Shown here piece by piece: positions 974 through 11,716 of a stretch of DNA of 14,205 nt; the stretch's first letter is position 1; each line of letters starts with the position of its first letter. The position numbers and the translations under genes were made by a program. The stretch is from the IMG/VR virus record IMGVR_UViG_2585427782_000007. The stretch is one strand, 5' to 3'. Source of the stretch: a virus (lineage: Duplodnaviria > Heunggongvirae > Uroviricota > Caudoviricetes). Under the pieces are notes generated by a model that worked only from the letters and a program-made list of their open reading frames with translations, had not been told where the DNA came from and searched no databases.

Positions 974-1202
974 TATCGCGTCCTCAACAATGAATTTTGT
1001 GATGCAGTGCCTGGTGCCTCCAGGTGACGTTAACCAGTTAACAATTAACGCCGGATACGAACAGGCAGCCAGTGATGATGGCGAGATCATGCGACCAAAA
1101 GAGCCTACGCGGTGGAAGTGCTGCTGATGTCGAATCCTAGCGTGATGACTATGAAGCGGGAAAAACTCCGGTCGAAGCATATTGTGATGAGTGGGGCGAT
1201 GA

Positions 1203-1490
1203 ATGAGCGAGATTAATTATCAGGAAGGGCATGAAACGGCGGGGCAAGCAAAACCAGTGGCATGGCGATATCGCTACGTGAAAAAAGGCGTTACGGACTT
1301 TCAGGGGAAGTAGTGGTCTGGTGACTGGAAATATGTACCGAAAAAAGAGGATTGTAACGACAGGCCGAACTATCAAATTCAGGCCTTATTCACTGCCTCA
1401 CCAGTCCCAGTTACATCAGAAGAACTGGTTAAAGCTGTGCACTTTTATGAACAACTAAAACGCGAAAATCCACCAACATCCGGCAACTAG
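1203..1490 (+). pseudogene. 95-codon ORF interrupted by a single in-frame TAG at 1311-1313 (candidate nonsense pseudogene)
   Basis: ATG 1203 gives MSEINYQEGHETAGQAKPVAWRYRYVKKGVTDFQGK, then TAG, then the same frame continues WSGDWKYVPKKEDCNDRPNYQIQALFTASPVPVTSEELVKAVHFYEQLKRENPPTSGN to stop at 1488-1490. Both halves look protein-like and there is no start codon after the TAG. Confidence 0.3.
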
Positions 1491-1744
1491 ATTAATGGAT
1501 TAACTATGTCGGTTAAACGACCAGCCAACTGAAAAAGCGGAAACCTGATTACAGGTTGCCAGATAAGGCAATGAGCTACCTGGCGCGGAACGGACTGATA
1601 AGTATGGGGAATGTTTTACGATGAACCTTTAGACTAAAGAGTTTGTAACGCTATGTAAGTGATTTTTTCTGGTTTAGATATTTATATGTCCGGCCAAATT
1701 GAGGTGTGTTTAAATGTAATTGCACATTGATTGTAGGAGGAATA

Positions 1745-1924
1745 ATGAAAAACGCATTGCAGTTTTTGTTTGTTGCGTTCTGGTTGTTCGCATCATGTAT
1801 GCCCATCATCTTCACAGCAAGGTATATGGAAAAAGTTGATGTTTTGATATTAATATTTGGATATATAAATGCCCTTTTTTTAGGGGTGTTCATGGCGGTC
1901 ATGTGCATTGAATACTGGCGGTAA
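1745..1924 (+). CDS. Small hydrophobic protein (59 aa, predicted two transmembrane segments), function unknown
   Basis: AGGAGG at 1735-1740, 4 nt before ATG 1745. MKNALQFLFVAFWLFASCMPIIFTARYMEKVDVLILIFGYINALFLGVFMAVMCIEYWR. The table ORF 1706..1924 starts at a GTG with no usable SD. Confidence 0.45.
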   Translation: MKNALQFLFVAFWLFASCMPIIFTARYMEKVDVLILIFGYINALFLGVFMAVMCIEYWR

Positions 1925-2072
1925 ATACAGCGAACTCCATTGGTTTAGTTGGATATTTACTGTGCTGGACAAAAACGGTTTGCGGGGAAATCTTAGTTAA
2001 GTAGAATGACTGCGGGTGCTTGAGGCTATCTGCCTCGGGCATGGACACCAACGGCAGATAGAGAAAAGCCCC

Positions 2073-3921
2073 AGTTAACATTACGCGTCCTGCAAGACGC
2101 TTAACATTAATCTGAGGCCAATTTCATGCTAGACACATGTAGGTTAGCCTCTTACGTGCCGAAAGGCACGGAGAAGCAGGCTATTGTTAACACCAAGCTG
2201 TAATGTCCCCTTTGAACCATTCTAAAATGTCCCCAGACAATTCTCTGGGGGATTTTTCATGATCAAAGAGACTGTTACGATGAGTCATAAGGAACTCCAC
2301 CGACTTCAGATTATTCAGGAACAAGCTGCGGCACGCATTGGCATTTCTATTCGGCAGGTTAAACGTCTGGTGCAACGGTATAGAAATGAAGGGCCTTCTG
2401 GTCTGGTTTCCCACCGACGTGGAAAGCGTCCTAATAATTCCTTTTCTACTGAATTCAGAGCAACAGTAATTTCACTCCTCAAAGGCCGTTACGCTGATTT
2501 TGGACCTACGTTTGCGTGCGAAAAATTGCGCGAGATACACGGTTTATCTTTATCCGTTGAAACTCTCAGAAAGTGGATGATAGAAGAGGGGTTATGGCGT
2601 GAACGCCGTCGTAAAATTGCCCGTATATATCAACGCCGCATGCGACGACCATCTTACGGTGAACTGATCCAGATTGATGGCTCACCTCATGACTGGTTTG
2701 AAAATCGAGGCCCCAGATGTACACTGATCGTTTTCATTGATGATGCCACCAGTGCGTTGATGGCGTTGCGTTTTGTGCCTGCTGAAACAACCCGGGCTTA
2801 CATGGAAACCCTCCGGGGTTACCTTAATGATCATGGCGTACCGCTCGCTCTCTACTCTGATAGACACAGTATATTCAGGGTAAATAACCCAGAGCGGGAA
2901 GGTGAGCTGACCCAGTTCACTCGTGCGATAAAGACACTGGGCATCGAGCCAATCCATGCCAACAGCCCGCAGGCAAAAGGGCGGGTAGAGCGCGCCAATC
3001 AGACACTACAGGACAGGCTGGTCAAAGAAATGCGGCTTCAGAATATCAGTGATATTGAAACAGCAAATGCATGGTTGCCGACCTTTATTGAAGCCTATAA
3101 CAACCGGTTCGCTACGTCGCCTCGTACTACTGATAATGCTCATCTTGATGTGCACCATTCTGAAGAGGAACTGGGTTATATCTTCAGCCTACAGGCGAAG
3201 CGCGTTCTGTCTAAAAATCTCACTTTCCAGTACAAAAGCAGTGCGTTTCAGGTACGCAGTGAGGGCCGGGGATATCGACTTAGGCATTCGGTTGTTACTG
3301 TATGCGAGAACTTTGACGGTGAAATTAACGTTCTGTATGACGGGAAAGCGCTGGGCTGGGAAAAGTATGTTGATGGCCCGGAGCCTATACCACTGGATGA
3401 TGAAAAGAGTGTCCATGAACGAGTGGATAATGCCCGTATTGATTTACGCTCAAAATACTATGTTAAACCTAAAGCTGACCATCCCTGGCTTACGCGCCGA
3501 ACGCAAAGTCATCAGCAAGTTAAGCCCCCGAAGTTACCTAAAAAGAAGCCTGATCCCGATAAAAAAGATTGAAACCAAGATCGATTCGGTTGAGTGCATA
3601 TCCATTCATAGGGTAGATTCTTAAGTCGCGTTTCTGGTGTTCATTTTCGGGTGGTTTGTTACTTGTTTTACCGGGGATATGCCAGAAACGCGCTGAGTCA
3701 GTCTGGGCGGTGCGCGTAATGAGGCGTTATGGTAAATAGCCTATGCTAATGTCCGCTAAGAGCAAGAAGCGGAAGTTGGCAGTTTTGTGGACTGTCCCCA
3801 CAAAAGTGACTACAGAAATAGTTGCAATTCATAATTGATCATGGGTTGTCAGTTAAACTCGTGGCGATTTAAATAGACTAATTGGGAGTGCGTCCATTAC
3901 TTATATCTTGTAATGTTAACT
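2073..3921 (+). mobile_element. Putative insertion sequence carrying the DDE transposase; boundaries tentative
   Basis: Single transposase ORF 2259..3572 flanked by an exact 12-bp inverted pair: AGTTAACATTAC at 2073-2084 and GTAATGTTAACT at 3910-3921. No similarity beyond the 12 bp and no flanking direct repeat, so the ends are uncertain. Confidence 0.3.
2259..3572 (+). CDS. DDE-type transposase with N-terminal helix-turn-helix (retroviral-integrase-like core; IS481/ISNCY-like, family not resolved)
   Basis: 437-aa ORF. N-terminal HTH-like segment (AARIGISIRQVKRLVQRY), then candidate catalytic residues in VFIDDATS, LYSDRHSIF and GRVERANQTLQDRL. GGGGGA precedes ATG 2259. Confidence 0.85.
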   Translation: MIKETVTMSHKELHRLQIIQEQAAARIGISIRQVKRLVQRYRNEGPSGLVSHRRGKRPNNSFSTEFRATVISLLKGRYADFGPTFACEKLREIHGLSLSVETLRKWMIEEGLWRERRRKIARIYQRRMRRPSYGELIQIDGSPHDWFENRGPRCTLIVFIDDATSALMALRFVPAETTRAYMETLRGYLNDHGVPLALYSDRHSIFRVNNPEREGELTQFTRAIKTLGIEPIHANSPQAKGRVERANQTLQDRLVKEMRLQNISDIETANAWLPTFIEAYNNRFATSPRTTDNAHLDVHHSEEELGYIFSLQAKRVLSKNLTFQYKSSAFQVRSEGRGYRLRHSVVTVCENFDGEINVLYDGKALGWEKYVDGPEPIPLDDEKSVHERVDNARIDLRSKYYVKPKADHPWLTRRTQSHQQVKPPKLPKKKPDPDKKD

Positions 3922-3964
3922 ATCAGAAATGATACAAAGATAATATGTCTTTAAAGAAAAGGCT

Positions 3965-3995
3965 GATGGCGAAAAGTGGCCCGATGAGGGCCACA
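3965..3995 (-). terminator. Rho-independent terminator of flxA
   Basis: Minus strand reads GTGGCCC-TCAT-CGGGCCAC (plus 3977-3995) followed by CTTTTC just after the flxA stop at 4009. Confidence 0.5.
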
Positions 3996-4008
3996 ATACG
4001 GCTGTCAC

Positions 4009-4341
4009 TTAGACGTAAATATCAATGGTGCCAGCGGTATTTGTATCGTCTTTTTTCTCTTCTTTTTTATCAGGCTGAACTGTCGCGTCTTCATTCTTTT
4101 TCTCTGCCTGCTGCCTTAACAACTGCTCCAGTTGAGCCCAGAGGCTTTCAATTTGCTTCTGTACCAATGCAGCCATTTCTTTTTTCTGCTGTGTCGTCAT
4201 CCCCTCTTCCGATGAGATTTTCCCAAGCTTTTCAGTCAGCACCTGAATTTGTCTTGTGATTTTGGCTATTTCTGATGTTCCTTCCGGGGCGGAGTTGTTT
4301 GAAATAACGGTTGAGGTATTTCCCTGAATTGTGACAGACAT
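4009..4341 (-). CDS. flxA: FlxA (110 aa), sigma-28-dependent prophage protein
   Basis: Table ORF 4009..4341; MSVTIQGNTSTVISNNSAPEGTSEI...; SD AGGAG upstream; consensus sigma-28 promoter immediately upstream. Confidence 0.8.
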   Translation of the reverse strand: MSVTIQGNTSTVISNNSAPEGTSEIAKITRQIQVLTEKLGKISSEEGMTTQQKKEMAALVQKQIESLWAQLEQLLRQQAEKKNEDATVQPDKKEEKKDDTNTAGTIDIYV

Positions 4342-4364
4342 AGATTTCTCCTTTTAAAAAAGCA

Positions 4365-4391
4365 CTATCGGCATGCACAAAAAAATCTTTA
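4365..4391 (-). promoter_or_regulatory. Sigma-28 (FliA) promoter of flxA
   Basis: Minus strand reads TAAAGATT-N11-GCCGATAG against consensus TAAAGTTT-N11-GCCGATAA (plus 4384-4391 and 4365-4372), about 23 nt upstream of the flxA ATG. Confidence 0.6.
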
Positions 4392-4543
4392 ATCGTATTT
4401 CTTGTGTCATTAATTGTTTGATGTTCAGATTGTTTTCCTCGCGGGCTGGCGCGCCTCAGAAAGTAAAGCTTGTTGACAGGGGTAAACGTTCGGCAATAAT
4501 TTTCTGCCGCATGCGGGTGTTGCATAAAACGTGTTACGTTCCT

Positions 4544-4849
4544 TTATCGACAGGTCAGGTCACCGCTCACCCGCCGACGAGAAAGCAACACTGACATGCT
4601 AAAGCAAAAAATAGATGAATAAGTTGAGTTGTGCATATGTAGCCTGACCGTCACAAAGTATATGGTGTCTGTACCAGTAAGATGATGGCCGGACTCTTTA
4701 AAAACGAGCTGACCTGCACAATACAGGATGGACTTAGCAATGGCTGCTCCTGGCACAAAGCGGACAGTGATCACCGTTCTTACGACTACTTTCTGACTTC
4801 CTTCGTGACTTGCCCTAAGCATGTTGTAGTGCGATACTTGTAATGACAT
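4544..4849 (-). CDS. ydfV: YdfV-like hypothetical protein (101 aa); weak coding evidence
   Basis: Table ORF of 101 aa diverging from relB, matching remembered K-12 ydfV length and position. No SD, and its start codon lies inside the relBE operator, so it may not be translated. Confidence 0.35.
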   Translation of the reverse strand: MSLQVSHYNMLRASHEGSQKVVVRTVITVRFVPGAAIAKSILYCAGQLVFKESGHHLTGTDTIYFVTVRLHMHNSTYSSIFCFSMSVLLSRRRVSGDLTCR

Positions 4850-4862
4850 TTGTAATTACAAG
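4836..4862 (+). promoter_or_regulatory. relBE promoter/operator (relO)
   Basis: TTGTAAT repeated at 4838-4844 and 4850-4856; perfect palindrome TTGTAATTACAA at 4850-4861, directly upstream of the relB SD AGAGG and ATG 4874. Confidence 0.6.
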
Positions 4863-4873
4863 AGGTGTAAGAC

Positions 4874-5113
4874 ATGGGTAGCATTAACCTGCGTATTGAC
4901 GATGAACTTAAAGCGCGTTCTTACGCCGCGCTTGAAAAAATGGGTGTAACTCCTTCTGAAGCGCTTCGTCTCATGCTCGAGTATATCGCTGACAATGAAC
5001 GCTTGCCGTTCAAACAGACACTCCTGAGTGATGAAGATGCTGAACTTGTGGAGATAGTGAAAGAACGGCTTCGTAATCCTAAGCCAGTACGTGTGACGCT
5101 GGATGAACTCTGA
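4874..5113 (+). CDS. relB: RelB antitoxin (79 aa)
   Basis: MGSINLRIDDELKARSYAALEKMGVTPSEALRLMLEYIADNERLPFKQTLLSDEDAELVEIVKERLRNPKPVRVTLDEL, near-identical to remembered K-12 RelB. Stop overlaps relE start (TGATG). Confidence 0.95.
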   Translation: MGSINLRIDDELKARSYAALEKMGVTPSEALRLMLEYIADNERLPFKQTLLSDEDAELVEIVKERLRNPKPVRVTLDEL

Positions 5114-5400
5114 TGGCGTATTTTCTGGATTTTGACGAGCGGGCACTAAAGGAATGGCGAAAGCTGGGCTCGACGGTACGTGAACAGTTGAAAAAGAAGC
5201 TGGTTGAAGTACTTGAGTCACCCCGGATTGAAGCAAACAAGCTCCGTGGTATGCCTGATTGTTACAAGATTAAGCTCCGGTCTTCAGGCTATCGCCTTGT
5301 ATACCAGGTTATAGACGAGAAAGTTGTCGTTTTCGTGATTTCTGTTGGGAAAAGAGAACGCTCGGAAGTATATAGCGAGGCGGTCAAACGCATTCTCTGA
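5113..5400 (+). CDS. relE: RelE mRNA-interferase toxin (95 aa)
   Basis: MAYFLDFDERALKEWRKLGSTVREQLKKKLVEVLESPRIEANKLRGMPDCYKIKLRSSGYRLVYQVIDEKVVVFVISVGKRERSEVYSEAVKRIL, translationally coupled to relB. Confidence 0.95.
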   Translation: MAYFLDFDERALKEWRKLGSTVREQLKKKLVEVLESPRIEANKLRGMPDCYKIKLRSSGYRLVYQVIDEKVVVFVISVGKRERSEVYSEAVKRIL

Positions 5401-5471
5401 ACCAAAGCATGACATCTCTGTTTCGCACCGAAGGTGACACTTCTGCTTTGCGTTGACAGGAGAAGCAGGCT

Positions 5472-5627
5472 ATGAAGCAGCAAAAGGCGATGTTAATCGC
5501 CCTGATCGTCATCTGTTTAACCGTCATAGTGACGGCACTGGTAACGAGGAAAGACCTCTGCGAGGTACGAATCCGAACCGGCCAGACGGAGGTCGCTGTC
5601 TTCACAGCTTACGAACCTGAGGAGTAA
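5472..5627 (+). CDS. hokD: HokD/RelF Hok-family membrane toxin (51 aa)
   Basis: Below the table cutoff; read manually from ATG 5472: MKQQKAMLIALIVICLTVIVTALVTRKDLCEVRIRTGQTEVAVFTAYEPEE, stop TAA 5625-5627. Confidence 0.9.
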   Translation: MKQQKAMLIALIVICLTVIVTALVTRKDLCEVRIRTGQTEVAVFTAYEPEE

Positions 5628-5696
5628 GAGACCCGGCGGGGGAGAAATCCCTCGCCACCTCTGATGTGGCAGGCATCCTCAACGCACCCGCACTTA

Positions 5697-5728
5697 ACCC
5701 GCTTCGGCGGGTTTTTGTTTTTATTTTC
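5697..5728 (+). terminator. Rho-independent terminator of the relB-relE-hokD operon
   Basis: AACCCGC-TTCG-GCGGGTT hairpin at 5697-5714 followed by TTTTTGTTTTTATTTT. Confidence 0.6.
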
Positions 5729-5843
5729 AACGCGTTTGAAGTTCTGGACGGTGCCGGAATAGAATCAAAAATACTTAAGTAGCGCGCAGGGATAAGAGGG
5801 ATGGTCCCTTAAAGGGGAGAGCTAATTATCCGGAAGGATTCTG

Positions 5844-6095
5844 ATGATGAACATCGAAGAACTGCGTAAAATTTTTTGTGAAGATGGCCTCTATGCTGTG
5901 TGCGTTGAAAATGGAAATCTTGTTAGTCATTACCGCATTATGTGTTTGCGAAAGAATGGGGCTGCGTTAATTAATTTTGTGGATGCTCGGGTCACGGACG
6001 GATTTATCTTGCGCGAAGGTGAGTTTGTCACTTCATTACAGGCATTGAAAGAGATCGGAATAAAAGCTGGCTTTTCTGCTTTTTCAGGAGAATAA
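5844..6095 (+). CDS. rem: Rem-like hypothetical protein (83 aa)
   Basis: Table ORF with GGAAGG SD; the 83-aa length and position between hokD and ydfU match K-12 rem from memory. Sequence identity not verified. Confidence 0.55.
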   Translation: MMNIEELRKIFCEDGLYAVCVENGNLVSHYRIMCLRKNGAALINFVDARVTDGFILREGEFVTSLQALKEIGIKAGFSAFSGE

Positions 6096-6161
6096 ACTCA
6101 TCTACAATCTTGCGCGGGGCTGAACTCCCGCTGAGTAACACCGTGCCACCGGAGAAAACCG

Positions 6162-6440
6162 ATGGCACGCAACGCAAAATATTACAATTCTGATAATTCG
6201 CCCGTTCTTGCCTGCACGCACGGGCGGTATTCTCACGCATTCAAGTCTGAATGGTTCCAGCACCCTCCATGCACTGCAGAACAGGCCGAATGGCTGATTC
6301 ATTCTTACCGCAGGCGCGGGTTCGAGGTTAAGAAAGCTCTCAGTCTCGACTATCGGCACTGGATAATCTCTGTCAGGCTGCCTTATTCCGAACGCCCACC
6401 ACGTGCGTCCCGCACTTTCCAGCAACGGATCTGGAGGTAA
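6162..6440 (+). CDS. Hypothetical 92-aa protein, translationally coupled to ydfU
   Basis: GGAG about 9 nt before ATG 6162; stop TAA 6438-6440 lies 1 nt before the ydfU GTG 6442, and the ydfU SD GGAGG is inside this ORF's 3' end. I do not recall a K-12 gene at this position. Confidence 0.5.
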   Translation: MARNAKYYNSDNSPVLACTHGRYSHAFKSEWFQHPPCTAEQAEWLIHSYRRRGFEVKKALSLDYRHWIISVRLPYSERPPRASRTFQQRIWR

Positions 6441-6441
6441 C

Positions 6442-7491
6442 GTGCGGGTATTACTTAGACCTGTTCTGGTGCCTGAGCTTGGGCTGGTGGTCCTTAAGCC
6501 GGGCCGTGAATCCATACAGATATTTCATAATCCTCGAGTGCTGGTGGAACCGGAACCAAAAAGCATGCGTAATCTGCCATCCGGAGTCGTTCCTGCCGTT
6601 CGCCAGCCGCTGGCGGAAGACAAAACATTGCTGCCGTTTTTTAGTAACGAACGGGTGATTCGTGCTGCTGGCGGCGTTGGCGCATTGTCCGACTGGCTAT
6701 TACGTCATGTTACATCCTGCCAGTGGCCTAATGGCGATTACCATCACACTGAAACAGTCATTCACCGTTATGGTACCGGCGCAATGGTGTTGTGCTGGCA
6801 CTGCGACAACCAACTGCGTGACCAGACATCGGAATCACTGGAGCTGCTTGCTCAACAAAATCTGACAGCATGGGTGATTGACGTCATCCGTCACGCAATA
6901 AGCGGTACGCAGGAGCGGGAATTATCTTTGGCTGAATTATCCTGGTGGGCGGTCTGCAATCAGGTGGTGGATGCACTACCTGAGGCTGTATCGCGTCGTT
7001 CGCTGGGATTACCAGCGGAAAAAATCTGCTCGGTGTACCGCGAAAGCGACATCGTACCGGGAGAGCAGACCGCCACCAGCATATTGAAACAACGCACAAA
7101 AAATCTTGCACCGTTGCCTTACGCCCACCAGCAACAAAAATCACCACAGGAAAAGACGGTGGTAAGCATCACCGTTGATCCAGAGTCTCCGGAATCTTTC
7201 ATGAAGCTGCCTAAACGTCGCCGCTGGGTTAAGGAGAAATACACACGTTGGGTTAAGACACAGCCGTGTGCTTGCTGCGGTATGCCAGCCGACGATCCGC
7301 ATCATCTGATTGGTCACGGGCAGGGCGGAATGGGAACAAAAGCACATGATCTCTTTGTGTTGCCTTTGTGCAGAAAGCATCACAACGAGCTGCATACGGA
7401 TACAGTGGCATTTGAAGATAAGTATGGCTCCCAACTGGAGCTGATATTTCGTTTTATCGATCGCGCGCTGACAATTGGCGTACTGGCGTAA
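6442..7491 (+). CDS. ydfU: YdfU-like DUF968 protein (349 aa) with C-terminal HNH-like Cys/His motif
   Basis: Table ORF 6403..7491 (362 aa); GTG 6442 preceded by GGAGG gives 349 aa, the remembered K-12 YdfU length. C-terminus QPCACCGMPADDPHHLIGHGQGGMGTKAHDLFVLPLCRKHHNELH. Confidence 0.8.
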   Translation: MRVLLRPVLVPELGLVVLKPGRESIQIFHNPRVLVEPEPKSMRNLPSGVVPAVRQPLAEDKTLLPFFSNERVIRAAGGVGALSDWLLRHVTSCQWPNGDYHHTETVIHRYGTGAMVLCWHCDNQLRDQTSESLELLAQQNLTAWVIDVIRHAISGTQERELSLAELSWWAVCNQVVDALPEAVSRRSLGLPAEKICSVYRESDIVPGEQTATSILKQRTKNLAPLPYAHQQQKSPQEKTVVSITVDPESPESFMKLPKRRRWVKEKYTRWVKTQPCACCGMPADDPHHLIGHGQGGMGTKAHDLFVLPLCRKHHNELHTDTVAFEDKYGSQLELIFRFIDRALTIGVLA

Positions 7492-7504
7492 GTGGAGAAC
7501 GAGC

Positions 7505-8257
7505 ATGAACCTTGAAGCCTTACCAAAATATTACTCCCCAAAATCTCCAAAATTGAGCGATGACGCTCCAGCGACAGGCACCGGTTGTTTAACAATTACG
7601 GATGTAATGGCAGCGCAGGGGATGGTGCAGTCGAAAGCACCACTTGGGTTGGCCTTATTTCTGGCAAAAGTTGGTGTTCAGGACCCTCAGTTTGCGATTG
7701 AAGGCCTGCTAAATTACGCGATGGCACTGGATAACCCGACATTGAACAAATTGAGTGAAGAAATCCGGTTACAGATTATTCCTTACCTCGTGAGTTTTGC
7801 CTTTGCTGATTACTCCAGGTCTGCGGCAAGTAAGGCTCGCTGTGAGCATTGTTCAGGTACGGGATTTTATAATGTATTGCGCGAAGTGGTGAAACACTAC
7901 AGACGCGGGGAATCTGTAATCAAGGAAGAATGGGTGAAGGAACTATGTCAGCATTGCCATGGTAAGGGCGAAGCCAGCACAGCGTGCAGAGGGTGTAAGG
8001 GTAAAGGGATTGTTCTGGATGAAAAAAGAACCCGGTTTCATGGCGTACCGGTATATAAGATTTGTGGGCGTTGTAATGGAAACCGGTTTAGTCGTTTACC
8101 GACCACGCTGGCACGACGTCATGTCCAGAAGCTGGTACCAGACCTGACCGATTATCAGTGGTATAAGGGGTATGCGGACGTCATTGGTAAACTGGTAACA
8201 AAGTGCTGGCAGGAAGAAGCATACGCGGAAGCGCAATTGAGGAAGGTGACGAGATAA
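7505..8257 (+). CDS. quuQ: Q-type late antiterminator QuuQ (250 aa) with four DnaJ-like CxxCxGxG repeats
   Basis: ATG 7505 preceded by GGAG at 7493-7496 (MNLEALPKYYSPKSPK...). Repeats CEHCSGTG, CQHCHGKG, CRGCKGKG, CGRCNGN. Sits directly upstream of a promoter plus short terminator, as for lambdoid Q. Confidence 0.85.
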   Translation: MNLEALPKYYSPKSPKLSDDAPATGTGCLTITDVMAAQGMVQSKAPLGLALFLAKVGVQDPQFAIEGLLNYAMALDNPTLNKLSEEIRLQIIPYLVSFAFADYSRSAASKARCEHCSGTGFYNVLREVVKHYRRGESVIKEEWVKELCQHCHGKGEASTACRGCKGKGIVLDEKRTRFHGVPVYKICGRCNGNRFSRLPTTLARRHVQKLVPDLTDYQWYKGYADVIGKLVTKCWQEEAYAEAQLRKVTR

Positions 8258-8288
8258 ATGATTTTTGCTGAAGATGGCGACATGATGT

Positions 8289-8317
8289 TTGCATTTTTCA
8301 AAAAATATGGATAAAAT
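8289..8317 (+). promoter_or_regulatory. Candidate late promoter (pR'-like) downstream of quuQ
   Basis: TTGCAT (8289-8294), 17-nt spacer, TAAAAT (8312-8317); followed about 50 nt later by a strong terminator, the arrangement expected for a Q-utilisation site. Confidence 0.5.
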
Positions 8318-8363
8318 TTTTTCAACGATGGGCTTTGTATACCCGACGTTAAGAAAAAGTAGA

Positions 8364-8393
8364 AAACCCGCTGATGAGCGGGTTTTGTGCTTT
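8364..8393 (+). terminator. Rho-independent terminator (tR'-like) of the short late leader transcript
   Basis: Perfect 9-bp stem AAACCCGCT-GATG-AGCGGGTTT (8364-8385) followed by TGTGCTTT. Confidence 0.6.
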
Positions 8394-8678
8394 AAATGGG
8401 GCAATGGTAATGTTGAATCTCATCCCGGGACTCATGTCTGTTAACTTATTATTTAGCTGGTGACTTGGTTATTTGCCTGATGTTTAAAATGTTTTCTTCC
8501 AGTACAATGTCCCTAAACACAATGAGTCTGCTTATTATATTATTAGCAGAGCTATTACGGCCAAAGTACAGCATAAGCTTTTAAAGCCAATCAACCAGTC
8601 ATCAAGACAGACGGGGTTATTCATAAAAACTCTCCATGTGTGATCCGATGGGGCCTGAAATTAAAGCTTTAATATAGC

Positions 8679-8891
8679 TCATGAAAGGTAAACATTGGCA
8701 GCTGAAGGGCCACGCAGACCATTTATCCGGCAAAATTCCACGCGTAATCCGGTGGTAATTTCTTCTGCATCGCGGAGATTGAGCGCTGAAACATGAAGCT
8801 GGACATCGATACGACCATCGGATGGGGTGATAAGACCCTTGCCGCTTTTGCCGTCAAAGGTTTTGACAATTCCTGTCATTTTACGGGACAA
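8679..8891 (-). CDS. cspF: Cold-shock protein family member CspF (70 aa)
   Basis: [70 protein letters not shown]; divergent from cspB as in Qin. Confidence 0.9.
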
Positions 8892-9191
8892 AAAAATTCC
8901 TTAATACTGATAACTTGGCGCACTATACACACGTTCCTGAAGAAAGCTATAGTTTTTTGATGGGGTTGAAGATGGCTGGATGTCTAAAATAAACATTGCT
9001 TCATATGTTCAACTATGCGTTAATGATTGCGTCGGTTTGAAGAACAGACGATATACGAAGTAGTTTACTAAAGCAGTTCTCATTTCAGGTGTTATTCACT
9101 TATTCCTTCTTTGAGTCTCTCCAATTAAGTACGAAGTCGTTTCTGTTATGCAAACCATTTATGCCGAAAGGCTCAAGTTAAGGAATGTAGA

Positions 9192-9407
9192 ATGTCAAAT
9201 AAAATGACTGGTTTAGTAAAATGGTTTAACGCTGATAAAGGTTTCGGCTTTATTTCTCCTGTTGATGGTAGTAAAGATGTGTTTGTGCATTTTTCTGCGA
9301 TTCAGAATGATAATTATCGAACCTTATTTGAAGGTCAAAAGGTTACCTTCTCTATAGAGAGTGGTGCTAAAGGTCCTGCAGCAGCAAATGTCATCATTAC
9401 TGATTAA
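9192..9407 (+). CDS. cspB: Cold-shock protein CspB (71 aa)
   Basis: [71 protein letters not shown]; SD AAGGAA; roughly 300-bp upstream region typical of csp leaders. Confidence 0.9.
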
Positions 9408-9688
9408 AATTCATCGCTCGTCTGTATACGATAACGAAGAAGGCTGATGCCTGAGTAGAGATACGGACAGAGTAGTGAATATTGGATCTCTTTAATAAAA
9501 AGTAAGGAGGTCCAATACATGAAACAATGGCTAGCATATTTGGCAAAATCTTAATCAGGAAAAGTATGCTAACCATTGTGGTGAAGTGCAGGTTTGCTGC
9601 ATGAATAGTTTTACAGCAGAAGCTAACTGCTGGCATGGCAAAACAAAGTGCGTAAGTGGATGACTCCCACAAAAAGCACCACAATCTC

Positions 9689-9712
9689 AAACCCGCTCAG
9701 GCGGGTTTTTTA
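9689..9712 (+). terminator. Rho-independent terminator about 280 nt downstream of cspB
   Basis: AAACCCGC-TCAG-GCGGGTTT hairpin followed by TTTTTTATT. No terminator is visible directly after the cspB stop. Confidence 0.55.
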
Positions 9713-9770
9713 TTATCTGCTTTAAATATATTATTAAAATATAAAAAATACTTGTTACTAATAAAATCAA

Positions 9771-9941
9771 TCAGGCTACAGCTTTAAGATTTGTCTGGAA
9801 TACTTTGTTGCAATGAGGGCAGATCAAAAGGGCACCTTTTTGTACTCTTGAAAAACTGTGTTCTGACTCTTGGGTGCAGTTTGGGCAGGAACATTTAACG
9901 AGATAATTACGGCGTGATTTTGAGTTTTTACGTTCTGACAT
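9771..9941 (-). CDS. Small zinc-ribbon protein (56 aa), function unknown
   Basis: Internal Met of table ORF 9771..9992 with AGGAAAAG SD: MSERKNSKSRRNYLVKCSCPNCTQESEHSFSRVQKGALLICPHCNKVFQTNLKAVA. Two CxxC pairs 18 residues apart. May correspond to a small zinc-binding Qin protein, but I cannot confirm this. Confidence 0.5.
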   Translation of the reverse strand: MSERKNSKSRRNYLVKCSCPNCTQESEHSFSRVQKGALLICPHCNKVFQTNLKAVA

Positions 9942-10160
9942 AGGCTTTTCCTGTATAAATGGCCGTATACAGTACACTAAATATGAAAACATTTCTCGTA
10001 TTATTATTTTATATATGACTTTCTTTCAAAATAATTACCCACATTTTTAATGTGTATGTTTTTTTAGCGCCGTTGAGAACAACGTGTGCTGTCAAAACTA
10101 CCCCGTAGACTCCGATCTTTTCAAACATATTGCACCATCCGTGTACATCGGGGTGAGGAT

Positions 10161-10376
10161 ATGAAATCAATGGATAAGTTAACAACAGGTGTTGCCTATG
10201 GCACATCGGCGGGGAATGCTGGTTTCTGGGCATTGCAGTTACTCGATAAAGTAACTCCGTCACAGTGGGCTGCAATCGGTGTGCTGGGTAGCCTGGTTTT
10301 TGGCCTGCTGACGTATCTGACAAATCTTTATTTCAAGATTAAAGAAGACAGGCGTAAGGCTGCGAGAGGAGAGTAA
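10161..10376 (+). CDS. essQ: Class II holin / pinholin EssQ (71 aa), phage 21 S-like with dual-start motif
   Basis: ATG 10161 preceded by GGTGAGGA: [71 protein letters not shown]. Met1 and Met4 suggest an antiholin/holin pair; two TM segments. Confidence 0.85.
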
Positions 10377-10380
10377 TCCA

Positions 10381-10688
10381 ATGACTCAAGACTATGAACT
10401 GGTTGTGAAAGGAGTCCGTAATTTTGAGAATAAAGTTACGGTAACTGTAGCCTTACAGGACAAAGAACGCTTTGACGGTGAAATTTTTGACCTGGATGTC
10501 GCCATGGACCGTGTTGAAGGAGCTGCGCTGGAGTTTTATGAGGCAGCAGCCAGAAGGAGCGTCCGGCAAGTCTTCCTGGAAGTAGCAGAAAAATTGTCAG
10601 AAAAAGTTGAGTCTTATCTGCAGCATCAGTACTCCTTTAAGATTGAAAATCCTGCCAATAAGCACGAGCGTCCTCATCATAAATATCT

Positions 10689-10692
<4 letters not shown>
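10381..10692 (+). CDS. ydfR: YdfR (DUF1327-like) acidic protein of unknown function, inside the lysis cassette
   Basis: 103-aa table ORF; starts 5 nt after the essQ stop and its stop overlaps the rrrQ start (ATGA at 10689-10692). Confidence 0.85.

Positions 10693-11716
<1,024 letters not shown>

Follow-up and report, generated by a model that had tools for sequence, protein, structure and literature searches.

The DNA analysed here is a stretch of 14,205 nucleotides (nt) from IMG/VR virus record IMGVR_UViG_2585427782_000007, referred to below as the window, and it corresponds to the Qin cryptic prophage of E. coli. Between the genes rem and ydfU it carries an open reading frame (ORF) of 92 codons, here called ORF92, which is conserved under purifying selection and ends a single nucleotide before the start of ydfU, a gene for a predicted nuclease. 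The reading that we favor, with a probability of roughly 0.6, is that ORF92 is the first cistron of a Qin-type lambdoid pair with ydfU, in a layout that implies translational coupling, and that the pair sits in the nin-region slot before the gene for the late antiterminator Q. The features that carry this reading are listed here.

6151-6154, plus strand: Shine-Dalgarno (SD) sequence of ORF92, GGAG, with a 7-nt spacer to the ATG, as read from the sequence
6162-6440, plus strand: ORF92, between rem and ydfU; ATG at 6162-6164, 92 codons, TAA at 6438-6440
6433-6437, plus strand: SD of ydfU, GGAGG, formed by codons 91-92 of ORF92 (TGG AGG)
6442-7491, plus strand: ydfU, with a GTG start (6442-6444) and 349 amino acids (aa); annotated as ydfU in RefSeq
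7505-8257, plus strand: ydfT/quuQ, a late antiterminator Q homologue (Pfam Antiterm, E 4e-54) and the next gene 3' of ydfU; annotated in RefSeq

An earlier inspection of the same DNA from its letters alone (the sequence-only reading) had proposed that the 92-aa frame has its own SD, that it ends 1 nt before the ydfU GTG, and that the ydfU SD lies inside its 3' end. All of this is borne out, the single intervening base being C at 6441. The SD of ORF92 is weaker (AGAG) in many homologous loci.

Coding status and annotation of ORF92

Judged by its pattern of conservation, ORF92 is almost certainly a real protein-coding gene. The sequence-only reading had taken a frame that is non-conserved or frameshifted in related prophages as evidence against it; the frame is instead intact in all 162 Escherichia-type loci retrieved from IMG/VR and RefSeq, with 92 aa in 112 loci and 90 aa in 50. 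Pseudogene copies are found occasionally in decayed prophages, such as that of strain M9. The ratio of nonsynonymous to synonymous substitution (dN/dS) was estimated by the Nei-Gojobori method on 60 unique nucleotide sequences, with the following results.

Whole ORF92: dN/dS 0.22, dS 0.44
Residues 1-26: dN/dS 0.70, dS 0.33
Residues 27-75: dN/dS 0.10, dS 0.65
Residues 76-92: dN/dS 0.10, dS 0.23

The frame is under purifying selection. The conserved unit is residues 27-92, with residues 1-26 forming an Escherichia-specific and weakly constrained extension.

The suggestion that the gene may be new or unannotated is correct for the curated K-12 MG1655 record (NC_000913.3), in which no feature is annotated between rem and ydfU. 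ORF92 is present there at 100% identity, at 1,644,306-1,644,584 on the minus strand, between ydfU and rem. It is not correct elsewhere: the Prokaryotic Genome Annotation Pipeline (PGAP) of RefSeq calls ORF92 as hypothetical protein WP_012304870.1 in strain 7/2 and calls equivalents in O157:H7 and other strains, and the family is catalogued as PHROG 1212 and as 'Orf QD1' of phage N15. A literature search using the accessions and names of ORF92 returned nothing on it.

In GenBank record PV340562.1 (phage PhiR42_1), an antisense ORF of 137 aa is annotated in place of ORF92 (window 6102-6515, minus strand), and ydfU is truncated, with a start about 40 codons too late. The antisense ORF was rejected as a real gene, being interrupted by stops in 70 of 74 unique homologous segments; the call is an annotation error that merits correction.

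The ORF92-ydfU junction

A YdfU-like ORF starts 1 nt past the ORF92 stop in all 153 Escherichia-type loci that could be assessed, and the clade of 330-aa YdfU proteins in ST131-type strains shows the same arrangement. The two codons that form the ydfU SD, TGG AGG, are invariant in the 60 unique nucleotide sequences. The 18-nt junction ATCTGGAGGTAACGTGCG is identical in 158 of 162 Escherichia loci; the TGGAGGTAA stop, the ydfU GTG and the SD are the same in every one of the 162, and the spacer base is C in 161. In other genera a 66-aa homologue ends ...TGG GGG TGA and the next gene begins 2 nt later, which gives the junction tgggggTGAnnATGGC. This is found in 30 of the 36 genome loci that have an in-frame small ORF, as well as in phiES15, SPN3UB and a Klebsiella phage. 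Across all lineages covered, the stop of the small gene is 1-2 nt from the start of the nuclease gene. The conserved junction looks like a recombination joint for swapping nuclease cassettes.

The start of ydfU at GTG 6442 is favored over an in-frame upstream GTG at 6403, the N-terminus MRVLLRPV.PELG being conserved in the homologues of SfV, YeP2, a Vibrio phage and P7. Initiation at 6403, and an ORF92-YdfU fusion made by frameshifting, were both rejected for this reason.

RNA folding of the junction predicts a hairpin that covers the start of ydfU.

6409-6448, plus strand: hairpin 3, CCCGCAC-UUUCCAG...CUGGAGG-uaac-GUGCGGG, in which the ydfU SD and GUG are paired with codons 83-87 of ORF92

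The local minimum free energy (MFE) of hairpin 3 is -19.3 kcal/mol. Nearly all of the 19 variants of the junction retain it; in two of them (5 loci) the inner stem folds differently. The variation falls mostly in the loop or is compatible with G-U pairing, the exceptions being one variant with an A-C mismatch (6 loci) and the majority ACA at codon 85, by which the inner stem loses its end pair. For 32 unique junctions from outside Escherichia, the SD of the nuclease gene has a mean pairing probability of 0.74 and a mean z of -1.29, and it often pairs with the run of Pro codons in the tail of the small gene.

From these models, hairpin 3 is predicted to be the basis of an obligatory translational coupling, and taking structure and layout together we consider that ORF92 and ydfU are probably translationally coupled. 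The arrangement resembles classical coupled pairs, such as trpE-trpD and the coat-replicase pair of MS2 with its sequestered ribosome-binding site, in that stop and start are 1-2 nt apart, the SD lies within the upstream ORF, and the SD and start are predicted to pair with the upstream coding sequence. It differs from them in that the coupling of ORF92 and ydfU rests on predicted structure with little covariation.

YdfU

The C-terminal sequence of YdfU ends ...QPCACCGMPADDPHHLIGHGQGGMGTKAHDLFVLPLCRKHHNELH..., and the sequence-only reading had likened this Cys/His cluster to HNH or NinG/Rap-type domains. Two motifs are of interest.

6718-6819, plus strand: N-terminal Cys/His motif of YdfU, residues 93-126, CQ...LCWHCDNQLR
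7267-7395, plus strand: C-terminal HNH-type Cys/His cluster of YdfU, residues 276-318, CACCG...PHH...HD...PLCRKHHNELH

The likeness to HNH proteins stands at the level of superfamily membership. Pfam DUF968 covers residues 160-346 (E 2.6e-76), and YdfU matches PHROG 96, 'HNH endonuclease', with E 7e-171; with 26.3 bits HNHc_6 falls just below its cut-off of 26.6, and RecA_dep_nuc gives E 0.004. YdfU has already been placed with YbcO (PDB 3g27) in group 7 of the His-Me finger superfamily, which comprises DUF968 and DUF1364/YbcO and for which a nuclease role in recombination or repair is hypothesised (Jablonska et al., 2017; PMC5714182). In the DUF968 proteins of Gram-positive phages, HNH is described as being joined to an Orf-like domain (Curtis et al., 2014; PMC4118853). 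Here, a 20-member YdfU alignment was compared with YbcO using hhalign, which matched YdfU 278-329 to YbcO 21-73 (E 2e-4, probability 46%). The residues C276, C279, H288, H302, D303, C310, H314 and H318 are invariant in the 20 family members; in the distant homologue from P7 the CRKHHNELH motif is partly replaced.

Structure prediction added less. The AlphaFold2 model of YdfU has a mean predicted local distance difference test (pLDDT) score of 60.9, with the HNH loop (286-305) below 50. A Foldseek search of the PDB with this low-confidence model gave no match at E <= 0.001, the HNH proteins Cap5 and ScoMcrA appearing at E 6-9; a phmmer search of YdfU against PDB sequences returned nothing. Of the profile comparisons that had been suggested for both proteins, that for YdfU gave the alignment to YbcO and that for ORF92 gave no informative match beyond its own family. 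On the sequence evidence, YdfU belongs to the His-Me finger (HNH) superfamily and is a predicted nuclease, an assignment that is already published; a literature search found no biochemical report on it.

What YdfU shares with the rest of group 7 is DUF968 and a Cys/His cluster that can be aligned to YbcO. It differs in having a further conserved domain at the N-terminus, about 190 residues long, that carries a CxxC/His motif of its own; the nuclease activity of YdfU is predicted from sequence. In this N-terminal motif C93, Q94, L117, C118, W119, H120, D122, N123 and R126 are shared without change by Qin and its homologues, out to those of P7 and Vibrio. AlphaFold2 places two strands here (105-110 and 113-118) followed by a helix (119-125), with block-mean pLDDT of 69-81 across both strands and 65 over residues 121-130. 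The motif, which a literature search did not find described, may be a second zinc-binding or degenerate His-Me-like element.

Homologues of YdfU matched 200 phage records, 173 of them at a coverage of at least 80%, including SfV orf45, cdtI, mEp390 and Upf95.7 of P1/P7. In the inspected loci they usually lie directly 5' of a late activator gene, Q in lambdoid phages and Lpa in P7; RusA lies between the YdfU homologue and Q in O157-type loci, and the locus of Vibrio phage Len has no annotated Q. The P7 homologue Upf95.7 is downstream of phd-doc-fdc. In Qin, ydfU fills the slot of NinG/YbcO, immediately 5' of the late antiterminator gene. Several database records mislabel YdfU homologues as 'antitermination protein Q'.

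The ORF92 family and its predicted structure

Residues 27-92 of ORF92 match PHROG 1212 over all of its length (profile positions 1-66 of 66; E 1.7e-35, 121.9 bits). Scans of Pfam and NCBIfam gave no match and no family model, with nothing in Pfam at E <= 1. A word-indexed search found 129 clusters of 90-92 aa in E. coli, Shigella, E. albertii and E. marmotae, all named 'hypothetical protein', with identity down to about 63% among aligned full-length members. A profile search found 539 clusters, again every one named 'hypothetical protein', and an exhaustive HMMER scan of 1.84 billion representatives gave only 102 clusters at 50% identity. A tblastn search of phage genomes identified a shorter form of about 66 aa, 33-48% identical, in phages of Cronobacter, Salmonella, Klebsiella, Citrobacter, Hafnia, Yersinia (PY54), Edwardsiella, Erwinia and Pantoea and in N15. 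By these searches the family is small and confined to phages of Enterobacterales.

The structure of ORF92 was predicted with AlphaFold2 from an alignment of 43 sequences. Residues 1-23 are predicted to be disordered; these are followed by a core, beta(28-33)-alpha(39-52)-beta(55-60)-beta(67-75), with pLDDT of about 90, and by a tail of lower confidence with a short helix at 84-90. The protein can be divided as follows.

Residues 1-26: variable, predicted-disordered extension
Residues 27-75: beta-alpha-beta-beta core
Residues 76-92: conserved tail, SERPPRASRTFQQRIWR

Thirteen positions (W31, H34, C37, T38, Y49, G53, L60, D63, W67, L73, P80, R81 and W91) are at least 90% conserved or invariant in alignments of 43 to 46 sequences from several genera. 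The tail is the most conserved part of the family. Its basic and aromatic motif is PRPSRTFQQRIW-R/G, with the general form P-R-P-S-R-T-F/Y-Q-Q-R-I-W-R/G and the variants RWRNRxWG, VWQNKAWG and TFRQKVWG.

A structure search of BFVD gave a single significant match, N15 'Orf QD1' (UniProt O21966; E 3.6e-4); beyond this homologue there was no significant fold match in BFVD, and the structure gives no functional lead. ORF92 is directly homologous to PHROG 1212 and N15 'Orf QD1', and the Escherichia lineage differs from them in its extra, poorly conserved N-terminal extension of 24-26 residues. In the N15 record AF064539.1 the small-protein homologue (MKNTPFKQGPMSRTDAENISDLYKKKGHEVV...PKPSKTFQQRIWE) is unannotated, at 35954-36154. 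It lies directly 5' of gp41, an RNase_T-type exonuclease fused to a Lar-like zinc ribbon.

Several possible relationships were considered and set aside. A beta-clamp-binding motif of the QxxL/I-F/W type is not proposed for the tail, the Gln being replaced by Arg in many homologues (RWRNRVWG). Homology of ORF92 to NinE or NinF was rejected (hhalign probability 0.1-0.2% against lambda NinE, lambda NinF and DLP12 NinE), as was homology to P7 Fdc, the family hidden Markov model (HMM) having no significant match anywhere in the P7 locus.

It is worth adding that the databases contain a few odd products, each from one or a few contigs. These are a single 438-aa entry, whose length suggests an ORF92-YdfU fusion and which is the only protein of this kind; several 607-aa YdfU-Q fusions; and a Salmonella variant of the small protein (96 aa) with an internal duplication. 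All of them are probably artefacts, of frameshifting or of assembly, and not programmed events.

Gene order and co-occurrence in other phages

The gene downstream of the small gene was scanned in 37 cases (33 genome loci and 4 phages). It encodes NinG/Rap in 21 and YbcO (DUF1364) in 13; the gp41 of N15, an RNase_T (DEDD) exonuclease-Lar fusion, accounts for one, and in PY54 the small gene pairs with an unrelated ORF. The upstream neighbor is an ORF of about 200 aa, which is annotated in two phage loci only, as NinB/Orf in SPN3UB and as DUF1367 in a Klebsiella phage, and the identity of the upstream ORFs in the genome loci is read from these two. The small gene marks the 5' edge of a slot for His-Me finger nucleases, in the order NinB - X - nuclease - (RusA) - Q. 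As an observation on the genes that fill the slot, the shared opening of NinG genes (MAKLPRRK...) and of YbcO genes (MANLRKA...) is ATGGCNAA, 2 nt past identical tgggggTGA ends of the small gene.

The small proteins found before NinG and before YbcO are up to 85% identical, the nearest neighbor is in the other class for 4 of 29, and the tail variants do not sort by nuclease family. In E. coli, many database matches run from 6145 to the ydfU stop, which is exactly ORF92 plus ydfU, with the upstream gene varying, and from these limits it follows that the two genes are exchanged as one mosaic unit. The divergences of ORF92 and YdfU are correlated (r = 0.71), which is expected from linkage alone.

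The sequence-only reading had suggested that ORF92 and YdfU form a two-component nucleic-acid-processing module and that co-occurrence across prophages would bear on this. Part of the idea survives: in nearly every case the small gene is followed, across a near-identical junction, by a gene for a His-Me nuclease. The pairing is not obligate or specific to one partner, however. An ORF92-family gene is present in only 63 phage records, compared with the 173 that have a full-length YdfU homologue, so that at least 110 YdfU-bearing phages are without it. Five YdfU phages were inspected: Klebsiella phage Kp4865-4 has both genes, adjacent, whereas SfV, YeP2, Vibrio phage Len and P7 are without the small gene. 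The family HMM, run on six-frame translations of the SfV, YeP2, Vibrio phage Len, P7, lambda and DLP12 loci, found nothing significant. By gene content, then, ORF92-ydfU is not an obligate two-component unit.

The same lambdoid slot (NinB/YbcN - small gene - nuclease - (RusA) - Q) is occupied in lambda by NinF-NinG (Rap) and in DLP12 by NinE-YbcO, and the junctions there are tight or overlapping, as at ORF92. There is no detectable sequence relation between ORF92 and lambda NinF or DLP12 NinE: NinF is rich in Cys and resembles a zinc ribbon, whereas for ORF92 a beta-alpha-beta-beta domain is predicted.

Upstream RNA elements and Rho-dependent termination

Three further elements lie 5' of ORF92 or over its start.

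6103-6108, plus strand: TACAAT, a -10-like hexamer conserved 5' of ORF92 even with a different upstream gene; a possible promoter, on weak evidence
6114-6131, plus strand: hairpin 1, GCGGGG-CUGAAC-UCCCGC, in the rem-ORF92 spacer, 6 nt 3' of TACAAT and about 30 nt 5' of ORF92
6142-6169, plus strand: hairpin 2, in which two bases of the ORF92 SD (6151-6152) are paired, as is the UG of the ORF92 AUG (6163-6164)

TACAAT recurs in most, but not all, of the divergent upstream contexts, with TATACT in a variant found at 20 loci and no counterpart in some rows of the alignment. A consensus scan gave TTTTCA-16-TACAAT at 6081-6108, which is not above the expectation from shuffled sequence.

Hairpin 1 presents the same CUGAA(C) loop on covarying stems (GCGGGG/UCCCGC, GCAGGG/CCCUGC, GCCAG/CUGGC and GUCAG/CUGAC, with AAAAUGG/CCAUUUU in one locus), and folding of the 105-nt spacer gave z = -2.74. 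The hairpin has the appearance of a functional element of RNA or DNA, and a boxB-like or a processing site was considered. A search of the intact Qin-type phage PhiR42_1 revealed no second copy, and a nut/boxB-like site was rejected on this ground.

Hairpin 2 has an MFE of -12 to -16 kcal/mol in all variants, and 90.9% of its alignment cells are paired, compared with 15-41% in slid controls. At two of the pairs there are compensatory changes, UA<->CG and CG<->UA, and one of these makes use of the synonymous third base of codon 2. Hairpin 2 is predicted to restrict translation of ORF92.

The RNA of ORF92 contains more C than G (83/65), the corresponding counts being 36/66 for rem and 261/286 for ydfU. 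The GC skew is -0.04 to -0.14 across 6050-6450, compared with +0.2 to +0.39 in rem; this is a matter of composition only. Cardinale et al. are reported to have described, in 2008, how Rho silences genes of the cryptic prophages in E. coli K-12. For this locus, MG1655 data compiled from microarrays, and from RNA-seq for bicyclomycin (BCM), show ydfU up by 2.36, 1.95, 1.4, 2.77 and 1.76 in nusG G146D, V160N and L158Q, in rho N340S and with BCM, and rem unchanged (0.54, 0.41, 0.08, -0.52 and 0.04) (Chhakchhuak and Sen, 2022; PMC9160355). Reverse-transcription quantitative PCR (RT-qPCR) in the same work ranks ydfU with the strongest of the Rho-dependent terminators of MG1655 (PMC9160355). The rise of ydfU with rem unchanged puts the termination zone 3' of rem and 5' of the ydfU probe, and ORF92 lies within this stretch.

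Among the Rho-silenced prophage genes of K-12, then, ydfU is one of the strongest, the upstream rem is unaffected, and the RNA of the intervening ORF92 is richer in C than in G. The published work on Rho treats the rem-ydfU region as upstream or untranslated, and its model does not include translation of ORF92 antagonising Rho.

The Qin locus in the window

The remaining genes follow the Qin gene order.

4874-5113: relB
5113-5400: relE
5472-5627: hokD
5844-6095: rem, 66 nt 5' of ORF92

The window is 100% identical to E. coli strain 7/2 over 5800-7520. Compared with K-12 MG1655 it has 3 base differences over 3388-10746, none of them inside ORF92. At 1059-3387, in place of the K-12 segment ydfC-ydfB-ydfA-dicA-dicC-ydfX, the window has other DNA of about 2.3 kb, where the RefSeq annotation of strain 7/2 shows a truncated ISNCY-family transposase. 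This replacement indicates that the window comes from a non-K-12 Qin variant without the immunity region.

An Rfam scan of 4500-9000 gave one match, outside ORF92-ydfU: a sub-threshold match at 5636-5717 to the Salmonella Gifsy-1 small RNA (sRNA) isrK, with 25.1 bits compared with a gathering score of 50 (E 0.019). The stretch lies directly 3' of hokD and contains a strong intrinsic terminator at 5696-5713. In Salmonella, isrK is positioned upstream of the anti-Q module. By analogy, a related sRNA or leader may be present near hokD in Qin.

Interpretation

If ORF92 is indeed the first cistron of a coupled pair, ribosomes finishing ORF92 would open hairpin 3 or reinitiate, and YdfU would be made only when, and in proportion as, ORF92 is translated. 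In an uninduced K-12 lysogen, hairpin 2 would occlude the ORF92 start and ORF92 would be poorly translated. Rho could then load on the bare, C-rich ORF92 RNA and stop transcription before ydfU and quuQ, which would keep the nuclease and the late antiterminator silent; quuQ expression would in this case depend on read-through of the ORF92-ydfU region. Silencing by Rho in the lysogen would also explain why ORF92 escaped annotation based on expression. We put gating of this kind, by Rho and translation at ORF92, somewhat short of an even chance. As to the protein, our best guess is a generic accessory factor of the recombination-nuclease cassette, for instance an adaptor to DNA or to a host factor that acts through the tail. 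That it is a subunit dedicated to YdfU is less likely, given that one and the same small protein occurs with nucleases of the NinG, YbcO or DUF968 type.

A number of observations weigh against this picture. Hairpin 3 shows little informative variation and no double compensatory change, and its 121-nt context is not unusually stable (z = 0.17). The N-terminal 26 residues of ORF92 are near neutral (dN/dS 0.70), and a literature search found no direct evidence for translation of ORF92 in any strain. The zone of Rho termination is mapped only 'upstream of the ydfU probe', and not to ORF92 itself (PMC9160355). Tight stop/start junctions are in any case common across phage nin regions, and adjacency alone is no proof of a functional partnership.

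Other explanations have to be weighed against coupling in a shared slot. The protein could be a dedicated partner of the adjacent His-Me nuclease, as an inhibitor or immunity protein, an activator or a specificity subunit, the two forming a two-component module. The small gene is directly 5' of a His-Me nuclease gene in 153 of 153 Escherichia loci (DUF968) and in 34 of 37 others (21 NinG, 13 YbcO); ORF92 and ydfU travel as one mosaic unit and diverge in step (r = 0.71); and a small gene followed by an enzyme across a tight junction resembles an antitoxin-toxin operon. We nevertheless regard a dedicated partner as rather unlikely. Small proteins up to 85% identical stand before either NinG or YbcO, with tails that are not sorted by nuclease family, and in N15 and PY54 the partner is a DEDD exonuclease-Lar protein and an unrelated ORF, respectively. 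At least 110 of the 173 phage records with full-length YdfU are without the small gene, as the HMM confirmed for SfV, YeP2, Len and P7; lambda NinG and DLP12 YbcO are preceded by the unrelated NinF or NinE; and the correlation is what linkage alone would give. The opposite extreme is that ORF92 is mainly a cis-acting, leader-type ORF that gates Rho termination, the ydfU ribosome-binding site and ydfU/Q expression, with a peptide of little or no function. This would account for the hairpins over both start sites, the excess of C over G in the RNA, the strong Rho-dependent terminator 5' of ydfU (PMC9160355) and the near-neutral N-terminal third, and the low dS of the tail (0.23 compared with 0.65) points to constraint at the nucleotide level. 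It is made improbable by the protein-level dN/dS of 0.10 on residues 27-92 with plentiful synonymous change, and by the 66-aa domain, whose hydrophobic pattern and tail motif persist from genus to genus at 33-48% identity while the nucleotides are entirely different; nor would a pure leader need a fold that is predicted with confidence.

Two more readings complete the comparison. The labels 'toxin to Rem' and 'Antitoxin Rem', which are of the RAST/SEED style and stand in two phage records of GenBank (ON470583.1 and PV340562.1), would make ORF92 the toxin of a Rem/ORF92 toxin-antitoxin pair, and rem does lie 66 nt 5' of ORF92 in the window. However, a rem-like gene precedes ORF92 in no more than 76 of 149 Escherichia-type loci and is absent outside Escherichia, and 58 of the loci run from hokD to ORF92 with no rem-like gene detected; a toxin without its antitoxin in half of the loci is implausible. 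The homologues in other genera follow NinB, not Rem, and a literature search gave no paper in support of the label. We reject 'toxin to Rem' on synteny, and find a toxin role scarcely credible. The last reading joins control and protein function: ORF92 would be a translation-gated switch before Q whose protein also serves, through its tail, as a common adaptor for whichever nuclease follows (Rap/NinG, YbcO or YdfU). On induction, translation of ORF92 would block Rho and unlock the ribosome-binding site of the nuclease gene. We think this combination quite unlikely; if true, it would mean a previously unrecognised layer of control and a cofactor common to many enterobacterial lambdoid phages.

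Significance

Part of what is described here is already known: the family is catalogued (PHROG 1212, N15 Orf QD1, PGAP), and the HNH assignment of YdfU is published. The annotation gap in K-12, the shared junction to NinG, YbcO and DUF968 genes, and the overlap of an ORF with the Rho terminator are, as far as we could find, absent from the searchable literature. These are useful and unsurprising refinements of lambdoid nin-region biology, and should cause a phage specialist little surprise.

The K-12 MG1655 reference is without a conserved 92-codon gene that is under purifying selection, and adding it would be a concrete annotation fix. The published Rho terminator 5' of ydfU overlaps what is very probably a real ORF, and models of this terminator should weigh translation of ORF92. 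Finally, the small-gene family marks the junction at which lambdoid phages swap three His-Me nuclease cassettes, and it offers an entry point for the study of nin-region function.

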